Assembly: GCF_016432865.1 (NCBI RefSeq)
Contig: NC_067400.1
Location: 177,816,001 to 177,880,000, forward strand
Length of the DNA stretch: 64,000 nucleotides
Origin: Antechinus flavipes
Lineage: Eukaryota
Reading direction: 5' to 3'
In this document: positions 9,403-37,284 of the stretch, piece after piece
Position numbering within the stretch: the first letter of the stretch is position 1
How the letters are laid out: every line of letters begins with the position of its first letter
Notes under the pieces: generated by a model
Told to the model about the DNA's origin: nothing
Seen by the model: only the letters and a program-made list of their open reading frames with translations
The model's database searches: none
Position numbers and translations under genes: made by a program

Positions 9403-9857
9403 TGCTAAGTGAAATGAGCAGAACCAGGAGATCATTATACACCTCAACAATGATACTGTTTGAGGATGTATTCTGATGGAAGTGGATCTCTTCAATAAAG
9501 AGAACTAATTCAGTTTCAATTGATCAAAGATGGGCAGAAGCAGCTACACCCAAAGAAAGAACACTGGGAGATGAATATAAACTGCTTGCATTTTTGTTTT
9601 TCTTCCCGGATTATTTATACCTTCTGAATTCAATTCTCCCTGTGCAACAAGAAAACTGTTCAGTTCTGCACAAATATATTGTATCCAGGATATACTGTAA
9701 CCTGTTCAACATGTAAAGGACTGCTTGCCATCTGGGCGAGGGGGTGGAGAGTGGGAGGGGAAAAATCGGAACAGAAGTGAATGCACGGGATAATGCTGTA
9801 AAAAAATTACCCTGGCATGAGTTCTATCAATAAAAAGTTATTAAAAAAACAAAAAAA
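9403..9857 (+). mobile_element. 5'-truncated L1 (ORF2 end + 3'UTR + A tail) with 17-bp TSD, inserted in a CORE-SINE (~9333-10040)
   Basis: gctaagtgaaatgagcagaaccaggaga...caataaaaagttatt-A-rich tail; perfect TSD caaatttggcttcaggc at 9386-9402 and 9858-9874. Confidence 0.92.
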
Positions 9858-11639
9858 CAAATTTGGCTTCAGGCACTAGTTGTGTGATCCTGGGCAAGTC
9901 ACTTAATCCTGTTTGCCTCAGTTTGTTCATCTACAAAATCTGTTAAAAAAAAAAAAAAATCTGGAGAAAGAAATGGCAATCACTCCAGTATGATGTCAGT
10001 AAGATTCAGACATGACAGAAAAACTATTCAGCAACAACTGGCCTTAAAGTGCTGATATCTTGTCTCTTGAGGAAGAATAAGGACCACACATTATCATAAT
10101 AATAACATGAGGATAAGGCCAGACCACAATCATCTTTTTCTTAAGTCTCAGAAGTCATCAAGCCTCCTTTGCTTTAGGCCCCATAATTTTCCAAAGAACA
10201 GAAACCAAAAAGGAGAGATGTTTGTTTATTTATGAAAATTTTGTTTTCTATCAGTCATTTAGGTGTTTCAGTGGATAGAGTATTACAGTTAAAAAGACTT
10301 GAATTCAAGTCCTCCTGCAAATGGACTGATCCTGGCAAATCGCTTTACCTCTTTCTCCTAAGAAAATGGAGATCATAATATGAGGATCAAATGAAAAAAT
10401 GCTGTGATGGTAAAATGTGAATTCTGGTAAAGCCTTTCAAGCTGAAAGAAATATAGAATATTGACAATAAGGCAATAGAATATCGACAGTAAGATAATAG
10501 AATATTGAACACGCTTATATGGAGCATCAGCCTAACTTAATTCAACATATTCAATCAGGTTGGCTGCACAGTGATGAATTTTTAAAATAAGTAATAAGCC
10601 AAAATAAGACTAATTCTGGGGTCAGGACCTGAGTTCAATCTGAGTTGCTTTAAAGGATGACCTGCCTCCATCCTCTACTCTCTTAGAAGGCAGGTTTCTC
10701 TCCCTTCCCCATATCCCTGGGCTGTGATGGAAAGGGAATACTTACGGGACTCTGGATCTCAGTTTCTCATCTGTTTAAAAAGAAAAAAATGAAGATGTCA
10801 GATCACATGACCTCTAAGGTCTCTGCCAGCTAATAGATCTAGGAGCCTGTAGTGCTACTAAGCTTGATTTGTTGGAGATTTCATGGAAACTTGGTATGAC
10901 TTTTACTCTGTCAGGCACACTGGTTTGATTTGTGTAAACTTGCTGAGATTTTATATTCTATTCCTAGAATAAAGCTGCATTCACTGCTTGTTTCTGTGTT
11001 TCCTTCCCCCATTCTATTAATAAAACTGAAGTTGGTGACTTTAGAGTTATTTTCAATTGAGATCACCATCTCTAGCCCCCTTTTTATATCTTCTCTGACT
11101 TGTTTAGTGGGAAAAGGGTTTATTGTTTCTAGGCTACAAATAAAACCACAAGCCTTAGTCATCAACATTTGAGTACCCAGCAAGATAACAATATATTGTG
11201 TGCTGTGAAGAGTTTATATGTGTGTGTGTGCGTACATATGTGTGTGTACATGTATATGTAAATAAAATTTTTTTAAAGTAATTTTAAGGTCCTGGCTTTT
11301 AAGGAGTTTATAATGTGATGGAAGAAACACAATAAATATAAGGACTTTAAAACTTTATAAACCAACACTCTTAAGAAGTTGTGATACTGCCTGGGTTGAA
11401 GTTTATGCAATCTGAGGGGGAAAAAAAGAATTAATAGTGAATAGCAGGCTGGGCTTGGAATCAGAAAGAACTGAGGTTGATTCCTGCTTCAGTAAATCTC
11501 TTTTGCCAAATCATTTAACTCCATTAATTTGTCTCCAAGTTTTTTTTTTTAACCTGAAAAAAGGAAATAGTAACAGTATTAGGGAATTTCTATCATAAGA
11601 TGTTAGGATTTGGAGGAGTCTTAAAGATCATTAAGTCAA

Positions 11640-15243: not shown

Positions 15244-16441
15244 GTAAGTATTTGTGACATTATTCTTAACTTTGAACTTTTATAAGTTAAAAGATTTTAA
15301 ATCACTGTGAGACCTCTATTTGGAATTTAAGTTACCGTAGAAAGCTGAGAAGAAATGTTAAATTAAACGTAAATATCCCTGAAAAAATGTACACCTTGGT
15401 GCAAAATTAAGCAAATTCTTTTCATCCCTTGCTGCTCATTTGAAAAATTTTAATGTCTTCCACAGAAGCAAACCAACTAGTAATACCGAAATCTTACAGA
15501 CTTTTTATCATGGACACATAGTATGAGGAGTGAGACCCTAACAGCATTTGAGGGTCCCCATGCCAGTGTTGCCACAGTGCCAGTCTCCAAGTGAGGTTTT
15601 GTCAAAGGATTTTTTGATACTGAGAAGCTCTTTCTCTCTGTGGGCTCCTGATTAGAAGGTAGCAAAGATTTGGGATACACAGGGTTTTGTTTTAATTTAG
15701 TTTTATTTAGCTTTCTGGCCTGGCATCTCCAGATAAATTGAGGGACTAATTTCCAGATCAATAATGGTGATGGATAATGATGGAGCCAAGTGAAAAGGTG
15801 GAGAGGAGTTGCAATTCAGGTGGGGATGATTTTAGGAGTTTCCCAAGGCCAGGTGAAAGAGGTATGGGAGGAGTTGCCAGCAGATTCAGAATTTTCTAAC
15901 CCAGGTGCCCTCCCTCCAAAAAAAAAAAAAAAAAAAAAAAATCGGGATCACAGAGTCCTTATTACATCAATAGGAAGATTAGTTAATTTTAGACAGTTGA
16001 ACAAAGATGCATTGGCATTTCACTTATCTAAGAGACTCCAGACATTTAATAAGTGATTATTCTAAGCACTGTACTTTGTTCTAGGGGCAGAAAGAAAAAG
16101 CCAAAGTAGTCCACACTCTCAAGGAGTTCTTGCATTCTAATGGGGAAGGCATTGGGCATTTTGTATTGTAATGAGGGAATCATAGGACAACTTATACATA
16201 ATTAGTATCTACAATGTAAATACTGAGCACATAGTAAGTAATATTAGAGGGGAAGGCAATAGTGGAGTCAGGATATATAGGGCTTAGTTTTGAGTAAAAG
16301 GATCATTAAGTTTGGCATAGGGAGAAAGAAAGATTCAGGTGCTCTCTTCCACCATTCCTCTAGGTAAAAGACTGCTGGATGGTCCCACCTAAGAGTACAG
16401 GTTTAATATAGAAGAACCTTTTAAGATCATTGATTTGTTTT

Positions 16442-18815: not shown

Positions 18816-19199
18816 GCCATTGGTTTGTTTTGGGATAGCGAGATGGCACAGTGGACACAACACTGGTCCTGAAATCAGGGTGATCTGACTTCAAATGTGG
18901 CCTCAAACACATGCCCCACTAGGCAAAGGTCAGTTTTAGCTTTCTTTGAGTCAGGTTCTGAGAGTGACATGATTACCTGCTTCCTCTCCTCTGAGAGTGA
19001 AAGTGAGATGAGAGTTAATTGATGGCTCAAATACTTAGTTGGATGCATGGGCCAAAGTGGACCTTAGACAAAGAAACCTAGAAAGTCAAAGATTTTTATA
19101 GCAGCAGCCAGAGAAGCCTCTTGCATTGGGCTACCAAAAATGAGTGGCTCCAGGTTTCTTCAATCTTTAGCTAGTACCTATCCAAAAGGTTTAAGAAGG

Positions 19200-19480
19200 G
19201 AAAATTGGGTCCCCACTTTCACCATTAAGTCATGTCCCAACAAAGGGGCAGGACAGAAGGAGATAAGAAGAGTGTTTGGATAATAGGTCTCCAAACTGAC
19301 AAGGCAGAGAGAAGGCCTTCAAAACAGTTCGCTTCAACTCCCATCATCTTAAGAGGGGAAGGGTGGGTAGAACTGGAGTACCAGGGCAGGACAGAAAATG
19401 GGGCTTCCACAAAGTCGAAGAGAAATGCCTTACATGCAACATCAAAGTTACCCTGGGTTCAGCCATTGTGATGGAGCAGG
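19200..19480 (-). pseudogene. pro: ERV protease remnant
   Basis: Minus strand ITMAEPRVTL...APFSVLP and CPAPLLGHDLMVKVG (degenerate GRDLL motif); DTGA motif decayed. Confidence 0.75.
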
Positions 19481-19499
19481 GGGGAGCCTGGCCTAATAC

Positions 19500-19866
19500 T
19501 GGACACCATAACTCCTGGTCCTGAGGAGAACGGAGGACAGAGCACTGGCAGAGTTGACTCATCCTCACTGTGCCCCTCCTTGTTGTAATTAGAATATGGT
19601 TTCTGGTTGCACTTGGGTCACAGGTCTGGGGGTTTCCTCCAAGGACAATTGCGAGACCACTGGCCTGACTATGGTTCCTGGATATGGCAGCAGCTAAAAT
19701 TTGAAACTGTTCTCTGTTCCTCACCCTGGCTCTGCCTTCATTTTCTTCTGCGTCAGCTTGAACCTTTATTGAAGATTCTCAAAAGCCTGTTTCCAATAGT
19801 TGTGTCTAGAGAGTTTGAGGACCCATGTCTAACTCTGCAGCTTCCTCCATATGTTTAGGACAGATT
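19500..19866 (-). pseudogene. gag: ERV gag remnant (capsid end + nucleocapsid)
   Basis: Minus strand (Q)SVLNIWRKLQ, QFQILAAA, and decayed zinc knuckle GQWSRNCP...NKEGH. Confidence 0.8.
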
Positions 19867-20750
19867 TGAAGAGGTTCAGCTCCCCTCAATTCCTAGTCAG
19901 GGAACCAAATGATGAGATTTGGGGTTCCTGGTGGTCTGGGAGTCAAATGAAGAGATTCAGGGAACCAAATGAAGAGGTTTAGAGTTGTGTCCCCAAATGA
20001 TGAGGTTTGGCGCCAGGCAGGGAGTTGTGGGAACTCTTTTAGTCAGCGCAAGGGTCCTTGGTAAAAGAATTTACGAATCTGAAAAGCTAGACTGATAAAA
20101 AGTTTATTTTTTAGGAAGTCAGCCATTGCTAGAAAGACTGAATTCCTTGGTGGCAAGGTTCCCAACAGAGGGATATAAAGTTTTTAGTGGAAGAGTCCTG
20201 GCAGAGAGTTTCTAGCAGAGAAATCCTGTAGCGGAGAAAGTGAATAAGGTCTTGTTGGGAAATAGAGAGATAAAGATAGAGGGAGTAACGCTAAAAGAGA
20301 ATATCATTTCAGTGGACAGAGGATTGCAGCTTATGCCAAAGGGAGAAAGAGGTTCCTTGGCATGGCATATTAGATCCTCTGCAAAGAAATGAGTTTAAAA
20401 TTGCCACTTTGATAAGGAAATCTGAGATGGAAGTTTCAACTGAATGAGATTCCCTCAATGCTGTCACTGCCTCCAGGTCTAGATGAGACCCCTTACTGGG
20501 AGTGGTTTTGAGCCAATTTTCAGTTCAATAAATGAGATTAAATTTGAACTAAGTAGGGAGTGGTCCTGTTCTCAAACTAGTCCCACCAAGATAACAATGA
20601 AACCACTTTATCTTGATTTCCTGGGGTGGGTCTTTCTCAGAGGCAGGGTTCAAGGAGAATGTCTCCTTCAGGGAGCTTCTCAAATGCTTTATCTCATTAC
20701 TCATCCCCAAAGGCAGAGAGAAAGAGAATATTTCGGTGCTCCCCTCATCA
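19867..20750 (-). mobile_element. Solo LTR ('GGGAACCAAA' family) nested in gag
   Basis: TG...CA ends (tgaagagg / cctcatca); tttatt at ~20104; homologous to LTRs at 24907-26754. Confidence 0.8.
19890..19907 (-). promoter_or_regulatory. tRNA-Glu primer-binding-site copy inside the LTR U5
   Basis: TGGTTCCCTGACTAGGAA versus PBS-Glu TGGTTCCCTGACCGGGAA (16/18; the differences are at a CpG). Confidence 0.8.
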
Positions 20751-21430: not shown

Positions 21431-22574
21431 TACTTCATCTTTGGGAGAGATGCAGAATTTTTAAAGTCATATTTCCTGCTTTGATGGAGCTTCTTGTCTA
21501 TTTAGGGAGGTAGATGCCATATTAACACGAAAAGAGAATGTGATGTATTATTGTACCGAGCAGGGAACCTGGCTTTAAATTTTGATTTTACAGCTTAATA
21601 GAATGCTAAGGGATATAAAGATAAAAACTAAATAGTCCCTACATTGAAGAAGCTTTAATTCTGCTGAAAAGATACAATATATCCGCAGAAAAGTAAATAG
21701 GAGTCCCTGGATATTTTTAAGTAGGGAGATAAATTAACATTTGCATAGATCTGATGATATATTAATTGCATGGAAGATGGATTGGAAATAAAAATTGCAA
21801 GCTAAACTTAGGAAACTATTAGAGTTGTAAAGAAAGTCTTGAAGGACTATGAGTGGAGAGAATATGAAAGAGGTTGTGAAAAACTTGGCCAAGTGATAAA
21901 ATACTGATAGTAGGATGAAGAAAGAATAATAATTCCAAAGTTATTGATCTAGGATGTTAGAAGGATTGTGGTATTCTCAAGATAAATAATGTTTAAACAA
22001 AGAATGTATTGGAGGGAAAGAAAAGTTCCATTTTCAAAATGTTGAATTTAAGTTTCTGGTATGGGGCACAAAAACAGACTCTTGGAGTAAGAAAAAGCAA
22101 AAAGGAGCTTATTACTATCTATGAGAAGGTGTTTGTCAGCAAAAGGAACGTAAAGCATAAATTGCAAAATGCAGAAGCCCCACCCCAACCTGGCCTTTTC
22201 CCCCCCATGGTTTGGGGGAGGAAAAAAATAAAAATATTATAAATGTATTATAAAATTATTAATAAAAATCAAGTCACAAAGTCTAGTTTAAGGTTATATT
22301 CCCAGGAGAGTGGGACTTCACCTTACTTAATTCCACACTGGTATCATACCAATGAGAAGATGTCAACAAGTAATTACCAATCTATATCTTTCTGCTATAT
22401 GTGTGTAGTATATATTTTATATATAGGAAAACAATGGTAAGCCCATTTATTGCACATTGTATTTAACTAGTGGTAAGCCACTCTTGTTTTTGTTTGTTGT
22501 TCATAAGTAGCATTACTAAATCTGCATCTTGCTCCAAATATTTAATGCTTGGCTCTGAGTCTAAATCACTATGC

Positions 22575-23061
22575 TGTATTAATTGTCCTATTTAGTTATT
22601 CTGCCTCAGGTTATAACCTTTCCCTCTTAATGTTTGATGAGATAAAGGTCTACCTCAGTTGCTGTGCCCCCAAACCCCAGGCTATAATCATTCCCTCTTA
22701 AATGGTTGATGAGATAAAGGTTTTATATCTTTAGGTTATAGACATTCCTTATTAATATTTGACAGGATAAAGATTTATCCATTTTAGATGTCATTAGAAA
22801 ATCAGTAACTTCCCTCTATTGTGTCATCCTAGGGGCCTCCCCCCATTAGGTTATTCCCACCCAAGGTACCTCCCCCATTGTGTCGTTGTTATCCCATAAA
22901 AGGCTTGCCCTCTGAATACTTCATGGCTGGACTCTTGAGGTGAAAGTCTCGTCCAGCTTTGGGATCAAACATGGATCCATTGGTCCCAGTATTTCTCTCC
23001 ATTTAATAAACTATTGAATTGGTCTCTAATCTTTGTCTTGCTCAGTTTCTTTGGCATTACA
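22575..23061 (+). mobile_element. Solo LTR in sense orientation
   Basis: Ends ...ggcattaca; AATAAA at 23005-23010; three U3 tandem repeats; U5 related to the LTR at 28504 (catggatccattggt.ccagt); start approximate. Confidence 0.75.
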
Positions 23062-24039: not shown

Positions 24040-24570
24040 AAATTTGTAAGGCCTTTTTTTAAAAATCCCATACCAAATCAAGGGACAATTTGAATGAAAT
24101 CTGTTTTAGTGATTGTGTGTCTGTATACATGTTTTAAATTTTCCATGTAGGTTTTAGGATCTTAGGGCAATAGTTTTTTGTTTTGTTTTTAAAACAGAAA
24201 GGTTGTCTATTCTAAACCCCTGATTTTAAAGATGAAAAAAACTGATCCAGAATGTTTAAGCAATTTGTTTAAGGCCACACTGGTAGAGCTACAATTTCAG
24301 TCCAAGTTCTGTGATTCCATCACTTTTTTCACACAAATTTAGTTTGCTTCAGATTAAACTGGTTATTTGGTAGTGTTAGAATTTTTCATAAATGTCAGTT
24401 TTTTTTTTAAATAAATGGCAATATAGCATGAATAGTTCCGATTTGAAGGATAAAATTATGTATGTGTGGCCGATTTTAGCCTCTCTTTAAGAATCATCTT
24501 TATTCCATATTGTTAGAAGTAAAAATTACCTGGACATTTGCAGATACTCGCTTTTCTAAGATTAGTTAAG

Positions 24571-24857
24571 TGTTGTGATATGGAAGCCATCTGCCAGTGG
24601 CTGCTGGAGGTCTAATTCAGACCTGTAGAATGGATCTCTCTTTATATGAGAGGATGATGATACAGGAGCCTGAAAAGCAGTTGCTGTTCTCTGATCTCCT
24701 TTTCCCTCTGCCTCCAATTTATTTAATTCCCAGTCCACAAGCAACATCTGTGTCACTAAAAGATGCTTTTCAACTCCTTCAGATGTTATGATTCACAGCT
24801 GTGGAGGCTCTTGGAGAATTGATCTGCACCTTCTTCAGCTAGGCATGGTCCTTAACA
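24571..24857 (-). mobile_element. Solo LTR (287 bp) with 6-bp TSD, class II-like
   Basis: TGTTG...TTAACA flanked by perfect GTTAAG at 24565-24570 and 24858-24863; AATAAA on the minus strand. Confidence 0.85.
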
Positions 24858-24906
24858 GTTAAGTTTACAAATACTTATTAAATACCCATTGTATTCTAAG
24901 GCTCCC

Positions 24907-25510
24907 TGTGTGGGAACCAAAAATATGATGAGGTTTAGGTTTTGGGGTTCCCTTTAGAAGGGAACCAAATCATAAGGTCTAGATTTAGGGAACCAAAATG
25001 AAATTGATGAGATCTAGATATGGGGTACCTGAATGAAATTAGGGTTTTGTTGAGGTCTAGTGGCAGGTTCAGGGTACAGGGAGTCAAATAGAGTTCCCCT
25101 CACGATTGGCACAAGGATATGGCATTAAATGAAGTCTAGTGGCGGTGCAAGTCCCCAATAAAAGCATTTATTGGCCTGAAAAACTAGATTGATAAAAGAG
25201 GTTTGTTATGGGGTTTGGAAGTAAGGAAATAGGTGAAAGTAGAGATAAAAAGGGCACTGGGCTAGCATGTTTGGGACCTCTGCAAAGAGGGGATCCTAGC
25301 ATGGCCCTTTTATAATGGGAGATTTAGCTAGAGGGGCCTGTAGGTGTAGCCCCAAATTTGGCTCAGATGGGGTTGGGGTGGGACAGGTCCGAATGATCTT
25401 CTATTGGAATTCAAAGGGACTAGGATTTGTGAATCAAAAGGTAATTACATTAACTAGGAGAGTTTGGGAATCAGAAAGAAAGGAATCTTAAAGGTACCAC
25501 ACCTGCATCA
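24907..25510 (-). mobile_element. LTR ('GGGAACCAAA' family, diverged subtype)
   Basis: Repeated gggaaccaaa/tgatgagg units, then aaaactagattgataaaagaggttt and cctctgcaaagag shared with the other copies; ends ...gcatca. Confidence 0.75.
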
Positions 25511-25542
25511 AGATTAGGGTTTCTGATGGTCAGGGAGTTAAA

Positions 25543-26068
25543 TGATAAGGTCTAGTGGAAGTTTTGGGGTTCAGGGAACCAAATGGAAAGGTTTGGCTAA
25601 AAGAAGTTTATTATAGGGATTGAGAAGTAAGGTTAGAAATCGCGGCAGAGAGGCATAATGTCTGCTGGGGAAATAGGTAAGGGTAAAGAGAGGATGGCAC
25701 TGGAAAATAATATTCCAATGGCCAGAGGCTTTCTTGGCATAACATGGCATGTTTAGAACCTTTGCAAAAAGAAGATTTTAGATTGGCTCTTTTATAATAA
25801 GAGCTTTGGCTCCAAGCTGAAGGGGGCTACTGGGTGGAGTCCCAAGTTGGCTCATCTACAAGCTGGGTTTAATTTGAGCTGGAATTTTAATAGAATTGAA
25901 TGAGTTTTTTAAATTCAGTAGGGTTGGAATACTTTTGCTCTGGACTGAACCAACCCCACCTAGATAACAGAATGAAACTATCTTGTTTCCCTTGGATAGG
26001 GTCCCTCACTGAGGCAGAGTTGAAGATTTTTTCCTTCAAGAAATTTTAGTTTTGGAGTCCCTTCTTCA
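25543..26068 (-). mobile_element. LTR ('GGGAACCAAA' family)
   Basis: tgataagg ... cttcttca termini; preceded by a degenerate PBS-Glu (ggtcagggagttaaa). Confidence 0.85.
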
Positions 26069-26754
26069 CACCCACTAGACCCCTTCAGCTTGTAGCCAAA
26101 GCTTCTATTATAAAAGAGGCAATCTAAAATCCTCTCTTTGCAGAGGCTCTAAACATGCCATGCTATGCCAAGGAAGCCTCTGCCCGCTGGAATAATATTA
26201 TTTTCCAGTGCCATCCTCTCTTTACCCTCACCTATTTCCCTAACCAGACATTATGCCTCTCTGTTGCGATTTCTAACCTTGCTTCCCAATCCCCCTAATA
26301 AACCTTTTATCAATCTAGGTTTTCAGGTTTGTAAATTCCTTTACAGAGAATCTCTGCACTGCCAGAAGAGGGTTCCCCAAAATTCCCTACCCTCATGCTG
26401 AATCCTGAGGGAATACAGGGGAGCCAAACCTCTCTATTTGGTTCCCTAAATCTAGACCTTATCATTTGGTTCCCTTAAAGGGAACCCCCAAAACTAGACT
26501 TTACCTTATCAGGTGGAATTCCAAGTTGGCTCACCTACAAGCTGGATTTCAGCTTGAGCTGAAATTTGAATAGAATTGAATGAGTTTCTTTAATTCAGTA
26601 GGGTTGGAATTCTTTTGCTTAGGACTGAACCAACCCCACCTAAATAACAGAATGAAACTGTTTGTCTTGTTTCCCTTGGGCAGGGTCCCTCACTGAGGCA
26701 GAGTTGAAGATTTTCTCCTTCAAGGAGTTTTAGAGTTTCAGGGTCCCTTCTTCA
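26069..26754. mobile_element. LTR of the same family with its R/U5 half inverted (26069-26511 +; 26512-26754 -)
   Basis: 26069-26310 is the reverse complement of ~25600-25836; 26512-26754 is a direct homologue of 25833-26068 (roughly 90% identical by eye). Confidence 0.88.
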
Positions 26755-28503
26755 CTTAGAACTGGGGACCCAATGAAAGGTAAGACAGTCAGTCTCTGCT
26801 CTGTGAGAGTTCACAATCTAATGAGGAGACAAAATGCAAACAACATTGTATAAACAAGACATGTACAGAGGAAAGGCAGTAGCATTAAAGGATAATCTAG
26901 AAAGATGCTTTGATATTTTCTTATTTGATTTGGTAGCCAACTTTTGCTGTTTTCTGAAATATGGCTATATTCTTCAGAAAAATAGAAAGTTTTAAAAGGA
27001 AACCACAAAAGGAAACTGACAGACTGTGAGAATCAGCAGGAGGAAGCAACAGCACACATAAAAATGATGACTGAAGTATAACCTCCTGTCCTGCTCTTAA
27101 CTGTCCCATTCATTCCTGTGTAGTTTGTTTTCCTCCCTATTCATCTTTAAACTTTTTGTCATCTACTAAACAGTTCCATAGAATGCCATCCCCAAATAAT
27201 CAGTTCTCTCCTCCAAAAGTTCTTTTCATTTTTCCTTTCCAAAGAGAGGCAAAATCTACTAAAATTTTCACCTCACCGTTGTCATGTTTAGAGATGAAAA
27301 TTAGCATTTTGTTCATTCTGACTTTTAACATAGGGCTTTGTGTGTATTTATGCCTGATGTTTTCTCTGATCTCCAAGCACTCTTGATTCCTAGAAAGTTT
27401 ATGTGTATGAGGTGGGGCAAGAGAGAGGAAGGGAGGAGAGAAATTCAGAAATTCAATTTTTTCTTTCTCATATCATATTTTCATATAAACCTCTTAGTAC
27501 TCTTCTCTTGGTTGTGGGTCCTTGGTTTCCATGAGTTATTATTCTTTTAATATTAGGTCTATGCAGAATTACTTCTCTCTGGTACAGGGAAGATTCAGGA
27601 GTTTGTGGAATTAATCGAGTGAAGGCACTCTGTTGTGAATATACCCTTAAACTATACCTTAATTGTGACTTGATACTTTATAATTACAAATAGAGTTATA
27701 GCTTTAAAAAAAAAAGTTGCAGGTGTTTGTCCCTTTCTGTCCCTTTTAAAGTTAATTTATTCTTTTATTTCTGGGTTAGATTTAAACTTTGACTCCACCA
27801 AACTATGAGAGAAAAGGCGAGGGGGGAGGCGGGAAGAGCTTCTGTGTTTAAGCTATTTAATCTTGGTGTTTTGCAGTTTTTTGTTTGCACTCCTTTTACT
27901 GACAAATACCTTGTCAGATGGGAGATGCCCTTTCTCACAAGATCATAATAAACCCCCTTTTTGCTTTTTCTTACTTTGAAAGTCTCTGATTGTTTTTGTG
28001 GTCCATACTGTCCCACACAGGAGGAAACCTTCTGGCTACAGTTGTGTGGTTGAAATGATAGCAGTTATCAAACACGTTTGCCAAAAGGACATTCCTGTGG
28101 ATGACTTACTACAAGATATGAACAAAGCACCATGCCTTACAAAAATACTTTTTAGGGATGCCTAATAACAGATTAATTTCACTTTAGAAGTTCATAGAAA
28201 TTCATCTATTAAATCATAGTTTTGATACTTTTCTCATAGAAAAATGTGTTCTTAATCCGAGATCCATGGATAGATTGCAGGGAATTCATAATTTGGGAAG
28301 AAAACACATCTTTCTTTTCACTAATTTTTCACTAGTATTTAGCATTCCTTCTATTAAGAATGTAAGCAACAAAATTATATGAAAAGGGGGCCATATAGAC
28401 TTCAAACTGCCAGAGGGATCCATGATCTAAAAAAAAGGTTAAGAATTCTTGCTGTAGATGATGGCTAAATTGCCTGGCGAGTGCCTATTTATTACAGAAC
28501 AAA

Positions 28504-35785: not shown

Positions 35786-36975
35786 GTAAGGGCATATTTA
35801 TTTTTTGTAACATGTAATTATTGTGTAGCATCTGTTAGCCAGTTCTGGGGACAGATAAGATAGTCCTGAAGAAATCTTCTTTTTTATTTTGTAAAGTTCC
35901 AAAATACACTAGAATAGAGGCAGTTGGAAAAGATCCATTTCTGTTTTTAAAATAAATTCAAAAAAATTTTTTAAATCAGAAAGCCTTTTTTTTCTTCAAA
36001 ATTAATTCACACTAAATCCAAGTTTTACATTTCTCTGTTAGAAATTAACTTTGGTGGATTTTCTTCTAATCCATGCTGCCATCTAGTGTTCTTAGGAAAA
36101 ACTAACACCTGTAGCACATATTTAAAAAATTTTTGTGATTCAAGGGAGGTAGGATATGTAAAGTGCTTTCTAATTTTATAGCTTTATGTAAATGTGTATT
36201 ATCATGATAATGATTTAAGAATCTCCATAATAGCCCTGAAAAGTAGTCATATATTTTTAAAAATTAGTCCATTCTATTTTTGGATAGCTAAATACATGAT
36301 GGGCAAGACCACTTATTTCTGATCTAATTGTGTTTTGTCATGTACTTCAATATAAAATACATTTTCACAAGTTATACTCTTCCCTATGAAATTCCTCTAG
36401 TCAATAGGATATGTTCCTTAAAAAAATTTCCAGTAATTTTATAACCATGAATATTATAGAATCATAAATTTAAAAGTAGACAATATCTTCTCAGTCCTCT
36501 GGTTCATCTTCCTCATTTTGCCAATAAAGAAACTGAAGCCCAAGGGAGTTGATTGTCTTGGCCAAGCAAAAGTAATGTGTGACCTGTTCTTCTGGAGTTC
36601 AAGTGGCTACTCTACAGGATGTTCAAGAAGTTCCTCTCAGCTGCCGTATAGTATCTTGACTGATATATCCACCAAACATAGGGTTACGTGGGCCATCATA
36701 GTGACAAGGAAAACTTGGTCACAAATATAATTTAGTGCCATTTTTAGATTACTTTCTTTTAGGTTTATAGGCTTATAGATGAAGAATTATAAGAACCTTA
36801 GAGACCATCCCTTTCCATTTTGCAGATAAAGAAACTGAGAGGTTAAAGTGATTTGTTTTGGGTCATACATGTGGTATTCCTGACTCATAAGTTCAAAAGA
36901 ATGACCTCAGCATTCTAAAAAAAAAAAAAAAAGGAAAGCTCTTTCTATTGGGTCCTTTACAATTTGGGAATTTTT

Positions 36976-37284
36976 TTTAAAAATAACTTTTTATTGACAG
37001 AACTCATGTCAGGGTAATTTTTTACAACATTATCCCTTGCACTCACTTTTGTTCTGATTTTTCCCCACCCTCCCTCCACCCCCTCCCCCAGATGGCAAGC
37101 AGTCTTTTACATGTTAACTATGTCACAGTATATCCTAGATACAATATATGTGTACAGAACTGAATAGTTCTTTTATTGCATAGGGAGAATTGGATTCAGA
37201 AGGTAGAAATAACCCAGGAAGAAAAACAAAAATGCAATTCATTTCCCAGTGTTCTTTCTTTGGGTATAGCTGCTTCTGTCCATC
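36976..37284 (-). mobile_element. 5'-truncated L1 3' end with 17-bp TSD
   Basis: Same L1 family as 9403-9857; TSD acaatttgggaattttt at 36959-36975 and 37285-37301. Confidence 0.9.

Follow-up and report, generated by a model that had tools for sequence, protein, structure and literature searches.

A partly inverted LTR pair in Antechinus flavipes, possibly left by a backwards nested insertion that later flipped

The window, i.e., the whole stretch of 64,000 nucleotides of Antechinus flavipes DNA analysed here, contains an LTR (LTR-1) beside a second LTR of the same family, one half of which is inverted. How was the second LTR cut in two and half reversed, and did an integration complex attack its own DNA, as an earlier note on this sequence proposed? 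At 26068|26069, the U3 end of LTR-1 (...CTTCTTCA) abuts the CACC of an inverted piece, segment B, and at 26511|26512, the U5 end of segment B (...CCTTATCA) abuts the GGTG of an un-inverted piece, segment C. Both junctions, a U3 terminus joined to CACC and a U5 terminus joined to GGTG, can thus be read in the sequence just as the earlier note described them. The tetramer at 26069-26072 is the reverse complement of both 26512-26515 and the intact LTR-1 site at 25833-25836. According to blastn, 26069-26309 is an inverted copy of 25598-25836 and 26512-26755 is a direct copy of 25833-26069, each with 87.7% identity. Mapped on LTR-1, segments B and C share exactly 4 bases (25833-25836), which bears out the claim that 4 bp of a single LTR site were duplicated exactly. 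The CACC/GGTG stagger is 4 bp, and a related LTR nested in the U5 of LTR-1 (LTR-0) also has one of 4 bp (a contig skip of 510 = 506 + 4). Since two true LTR ends meet one site with a 4-bp stagger, an integrase-type event must have struck an LTR of its own family. The 4-bp duplication and the CA ends resemble those of gammaretroviral XMRV/MLV integration (PMC2857682; here and below, sources are cited for the available part of their text), but no protein match assigns the present LTR family to the gamma-like ERVs. The junctions prove such an event in a same-family LTR without proving that donor and target were one molecule, because two different histories yield the identical order of parts. The features of the locus are as follows.

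24858-24901, no strand: left host flank, which we take from its sequence to be an old LINE-2-like repeat.
24902-24919, minus strand: primer-binding site (PBS) for tRNA-Glu(TTC), host DNA directly beyond (17/18 match to the tRNA 3' end).
24920-24925, minus strand: 6-base linker from the PBS to the U5 end (sequence).
24926-25004, minus strand: true U5 end of LTR-1, the outer piece of segment A (end-to-end alignment with 26511-26437; contig skip to 25511).
25005-25510, minus strand: LTR-0, a related solo LTR of 506 bp, TG...CA, in the U5 of LTR-1 (AAAT/AGAT flanks; contig skip).
25511-26068, minus strand: remainder of LTR-1 (segment A), with inner U5 repeats, R and U3; U3 end at 26068.
25833-25836, minus strand: the attacked site as it stands intact in LTR-1.
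26069-26511, plus strand: segment B, half an LTR in inverted orientation, reaching from CACC of the attacked site to the U5 end, 443 bp.
26512-26754, minus strand: segment C, a half LTR from the attacked site (GGTG) to the U3 end, 243 bp (family end at 26754 in four of four runs).
26755-26870, no strand: right host flank, starting directly after the U3 CA (single-copy contigs of X18, X22 and X3).

The limits of these pieces were determined with contigs of four public runs (X18, X22, X1 and X3, from three studies), which were matched to 24500-27300 at 85% likeness; the contig tables list some of the pieces, and gaps in cover were not taken as absence. None of the runs held more than half of the words of the stretch, and a part of it was present in 22 of 24 rows. 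The start of LTR-1 had been placed at 25543, which the contigs show to be wrong: 25543 is an inner U5 repeat and is ruled out as the U5 end by family contigs that run from about 25000 straight to 25511. This skip of 510 bases is found in 6, 6, 8, and 9 contigs of the four runs, and 7, 3, 5, and 4 contigs, respectively, join 25511 to 26437 on opposite strands. Consequently, 25511-25542 belongs to U5 and 25005-25510 is a nested second LTR, and LTR-1 therefore spans 26068 to 24926. LTR-0 has the same orientation as LTR-1 and carries a 4-bp duplication (AAAT/AGAT), with the skip of 510 bases recurring in all four runs.

At the other end of the structure, 160 to 203 contigs per run stop matching at 26754 in four of four runs, with mixed flanks (agreement 0.39-0.40), so that 26754 is the U3 end of the family; 26068 is the base homologous to it. 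As to the U5 end, 26511 aligns with 24926, and ends of this type adjoin a PBS both at 24926 and, in a related LTR, at 19910; 26511 itself does not occur among the 24 of 4,127 contig loose ends listed. Both breakpoints thus lie at LTR termini, as first supposed, the U3 terminus being fixed by contig ends in all four runs and the U5 terminus by homology to PBS-marked ends. Single-copy contigs of the right flank from X18, X22, and X3 start 27 to 28 bases inside segment C (the rule for bridging is 31 bases) and show 0, 9, and 29 differences from the window per about 570 bases, which hints that the joint between segment C and host DNA is common to an organism 5.2% diverged. Window-specific letters, obtained by subtraction and to be taken as a hint only, appear at one-copy depth for segment A in X22 and for segment B in X18, X22, and X1. 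An unflipped or pre-insertion orthologue was not seen among the 15 of 502 joints and the 32 of 66,157 contig pieces listed. The LTR motifs had no match in viral contigs and none in metagenome contigs.

The outer end of LTR-1 is marked by a PBS. Of the 18 bases at 24902-24919, 17 agree with the 3'-terminal 18 bases of human tRNA-Glu(TTC) as given in PMC9550958, and beyond them the agreement ceases. No other place in the window has at least 14 matches to that tRNA 3' end, and the chance of this PBS match is about 6e-4 after allowing for the shared core. ARAGORN found no tRNAs in the window. That the PBS might be one more inner U5 repeat was considered and rejected (14/18 to the inner repeat versus 17/18 to the tRNA). 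A motif scan with the PBS gave 45 metagenome loci, dismissed as chance matches, since none of the 45 had a tRNA gene. The linker between PBS and U5 also appears as an inner unit in 2 to 3 contigs of three of the four runs (joint 24912/26481), and the U5 of the family comprises several inner units that look like an LTR end with the beginning of a tRNA-Glu PBS attached (19938, 19960, 24960, 25533, and 26474), which suggests that primer copies were repeatedly captured into it. Given these units, PBS-tailed ends are likely to have arisen in this LTR family before. The related LTR at 19910 has its own PBS at 19890-19907, with 16/18 matches to the tRNA-Glu primer in bioRxiv 10.1101/797472. The two PBS copies fit different tRNA-Glu types, that at 24902-24919 scoring 17/18 on the first and 14/18 on the second and that at 19890-19907 scoring 13 and 16.

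Beside the U3 half, no polypurine tract or internal region is present, and host DNA follows directly after 26754. An outer 4-bp duplication was not found at any of 7 offsets (best 2/4); a 4/6 match at the PBS boundary could be a decayed 6-bp repeat. Among eight candidate copies used to examine continuity of the host flanks, one was colinear (near 16060), which is not significant (shuffle p = 0.08).

These boundaries bear directly on autointegration, according to which the 3' LTR was attacked by the element's own integration complex and the resulting linear DNA was caught in a chromosome and inherited through several species. We think this history possible but rather doubtful; the odds that we attach to it and to the other readings are matters of judgement and were not computed. 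In a symbolic test, a 3'-LTR target yields exactly the observed order, including a PBS beside segment A, while a 5'-LTR target puts the parts in a wrong order and was discarded. The PBS next to LTR-1, which the reading predicts and the earlier note missed, is indeed there, at 17/18 and exactly 18 bases long, followed by host DNA. Moreover, the outer ends correspond to the limits that plus-strand strong-stop DNA has, starting at the polypurine tract and stopping at the 18th tRNA base (PMC11241228), and the outer 4-bp duplication is absent. Attack on opposite strands is an established source of inversion circles, in which both LTR ends are joined to opposite strands of their own element (PMC7197481, citing Garfinkel et al. 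2006), and the A-B-C order fits such a product with a 3'-LTR target. Against this stands the absence of the polypurine tract and internal region that autointegration predicts, and the autointegrant must therefore have opened exactly at two landmarks, a hypothetical route. In this reading the complex would have been built on a pair of LTR duplexes with the plus-strand strong-stop landmarks as their limits, possibly derived from two different co-packaged genomes. In the available parts of PMC7197481 and PMC5041404, autointegrants are reported as unintegrated circles, and the inversion-circle products of PMC7197481 are extrachromosomal and have identical LTRs and an internal region. The present locus, by comparison, is chromosomal, lacks an internal region and a polypurine tract, and has LTRs that are 9.7% apart with two large indels; because polypurine tract and internal region failed to appear, we do not class it as an inversion-circle autointegrant. 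A germ-line-fixed autointegrant was not found in the literature searched, which omits most subscription journals.

How far the LTRs have diverged provides a second line of evidence. Segment A differs from B plus C at 55 of 567 aligned bases (9.7%), and a 76-bp unit of A is missing from B while a 113-bp piece of B is missing from A, in agreement with the caveat in the earlier note that the two LTRs are about 10% apart and unlike in U5 structure. Family contig pieces differ from the window at 264 of 2,477 bases (10.7%; 16 pieces, the longest listed, with a cutoff at 85% likeness), a value indistinguishable from the A-B/C divergence (Fisher p = 0.54), and family contigs contain both the 76-bp unit and the 113-bp piece. 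As judged from the aligned bases, A and B plus C therefore seem no more alike than unrelated copies of the family. The two LTRs of one cDNA are identical at origin (PMC11241228), and autointegration consequently demands either later deletions or two different co-packaged genomes to account for the 9.7% divergence and the two large indels. Among the listed sites at which the window departs from family contigs (40 of 498), 7 rare ones could be aligned; of these, 1 was common to A and its partner and 6 were private to one of the two. Polarity against the 19910 copy as outgroup was balanced (10:11 and 7:9), which suits the equal age that autointegration implies.

The same order of parts could also arise from separate insertions. 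In the explanation that we prefer, and to which we would give about an even chance, a provirus entered a chromosomal LTR in backward orientation, and later recombination between the inverted arms flipped the 232-base spacer. A first element would have inserted with an integrase-made U3 end (26754) and a host-made end carrying the 18-base copy of the tRNA primer; because one end would be made by integrase and the other by the host, no outer duplication would have formed. This element would then have been reduced to a solo LTR. Into it a second member of the family would have inserted the other way round, duplicating 4 bp, and this member would likewise have been reduced to a solo LTR. Thereafter, a crossover within the inverted R/U5 arms would have reversed the spacer, making A and B reciprocal hybrids and leaving one copy of the duplication to be read as its reverse complement. 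LTR-0 would have entered U5 at a time that this scheme leaves unspecified. The symbolic test reproduces the observed order when an element is nested backwards and the spacer between the inverted R/U5 arms is then flipped.

Several observations favour a nested insertion with a later flip. The divergence of A from B plus C is like that of unrelated family copies, with two large indels in addition, and host DNA meets the U3 CA exactly, without a polypurine tract, as predicted for a chromosomal target LTR. It is on the divergence of 9.7%, the indels, and the missing polypurine tract that our preference rests. Nesting has also occurred a second time in the same LTR (LTR-0), and more LTRs lie nearby at 24571-24857 and 19910-20696. 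The flipped segment is bordered by inverted homologous arms that still pair strongly (z = -33). Recombination between Alu or L1 copies in inverted orientation is documented to cause inversions, which leave hybrid elements and duplications without a match (Lee et al. 2008, PMC2603318), and the present locus resembles such inversions in its two inverted copies and in the hybrids and non-matching duplications proposed here. Unlike the inversions described in the available text of that study, it involves nested LTRs and a 232-bp spacer, with a putative ancestral state and crossover.

The scheme has its costs. Five events must have happened separately, and an aberrant first insertion has to be added for the outer end, which is PBS-tailed and free of a duplication. 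Integrations in which integrase joins one end and host enzymes join the other, accompanied by host deletions, are known for ASLV and HIV (PMC5041404), and our locus is similar in having one correct CA junction and one irregular junction, with no short duplication. In the available part of the same source, however, host duplications are the commonest outcome and the bad end is often truncated, whereas the irregular end here is extended by the linker and a complete PBS; aberrant integrations numbered 0 of 99 in drug-free wild-type HIV. No crossover within the arms could be located: the direction of differences shows no switch along them (weak/strong 30:18, p = 0.11; low power), and polarity against the outgroup is balanced. 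In addition, the match in divergence fits a single cDNA as well, provided that the family expanded in one burst, and balanced polarity is also expected from equal age. Long inverted arms are unstable, which could lead to large deletions, and the two large indels may be later deletions that broke the arms. Autointegration is thus weaker than the earlier note held: its integrase signature, two true ends at one site with a 4-bp stagger, stands, whereas its order of parts is reproduced identically by nesting and flipping. It is nevertheless alive because of the PBS end that had been overlooked.

Two variants of nesting would dispense with parts of this scheme. In one, which we regard as improbable, nesting and flip affected the 5' LTR of a provirus of the ordinary kind, which later lost by deletion all that lay from the PBS up to a point just past the other LTR. 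The PBS would then be accounted for without an aberrant first insertion, and the symbolic test returned the same order of parts. However, both ends of the deletion must have hit special spots by chance, namely, the exact PBS boundary and, if the flanks were once adjacent (p = 0.08), a point about 7 to 11 bases from the insertion point. In the other variant, the nest is real, but the flipped order arose through an error of assembly at a stretch where the two arms are identical. A swap within the arms would produce the same order in the symbolic test, and neither inner junction is bridged among the 32 of 66,157 contig pieces listed. The longest identical run between the arms is only 35 bases (25680-25714), the arms are about 10% apart, and the window contains no N; we consider such an error very unlikely. 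Some other history altogether is given an equally slim chance.

If a nested insertion and a flip account for the locus, it is a compact case of nested LTRs rearranging themselves and leaving the same scar as autointegration, and the A-B-C scar alone is therefore no proof of autointegration. If autointegration were true, a normally dead-end product of integrase could enter the germ line, and one could then count, in any assembled genome, how often the A-B-C order occurs together with a PBS end without outer duplication. In either case the structure is probably an inert fossil without sign of function, and nothing suggests a function for the host.

The window contains further elements. The related 5' LTR extends from 19910 to about 20696 on the minus strand, and beyond its PBS lies a short, decayed internal region (element as a whole, 18900-20696) with protease-like words, recognized by eye, across three frames. 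Searches for pol, pro, and gag of this element gave no Pfam hits in five and in four frames and no PDB hits. A separate solo LTR at 24571-24857 is flanked on both sides by a perfect 6-bp duplication, GTTAAG, and its contigs end at 24571; the 6-bp duplication assigns it to another ERV class. Solo LTRs abound in a dasyurid genome, that of the Tasmanian devil, for which about 64,546 have been estimated (PMC11334065). At about 22560-23060, the sequence again looks like an LTR and contains a polyadenylation signal as well as short inner repeats. Finally, 9529-9863 and 36961-37284 are inverted copies of a repeat that are 84 to 94% complementary and lie about 27 kb apart.
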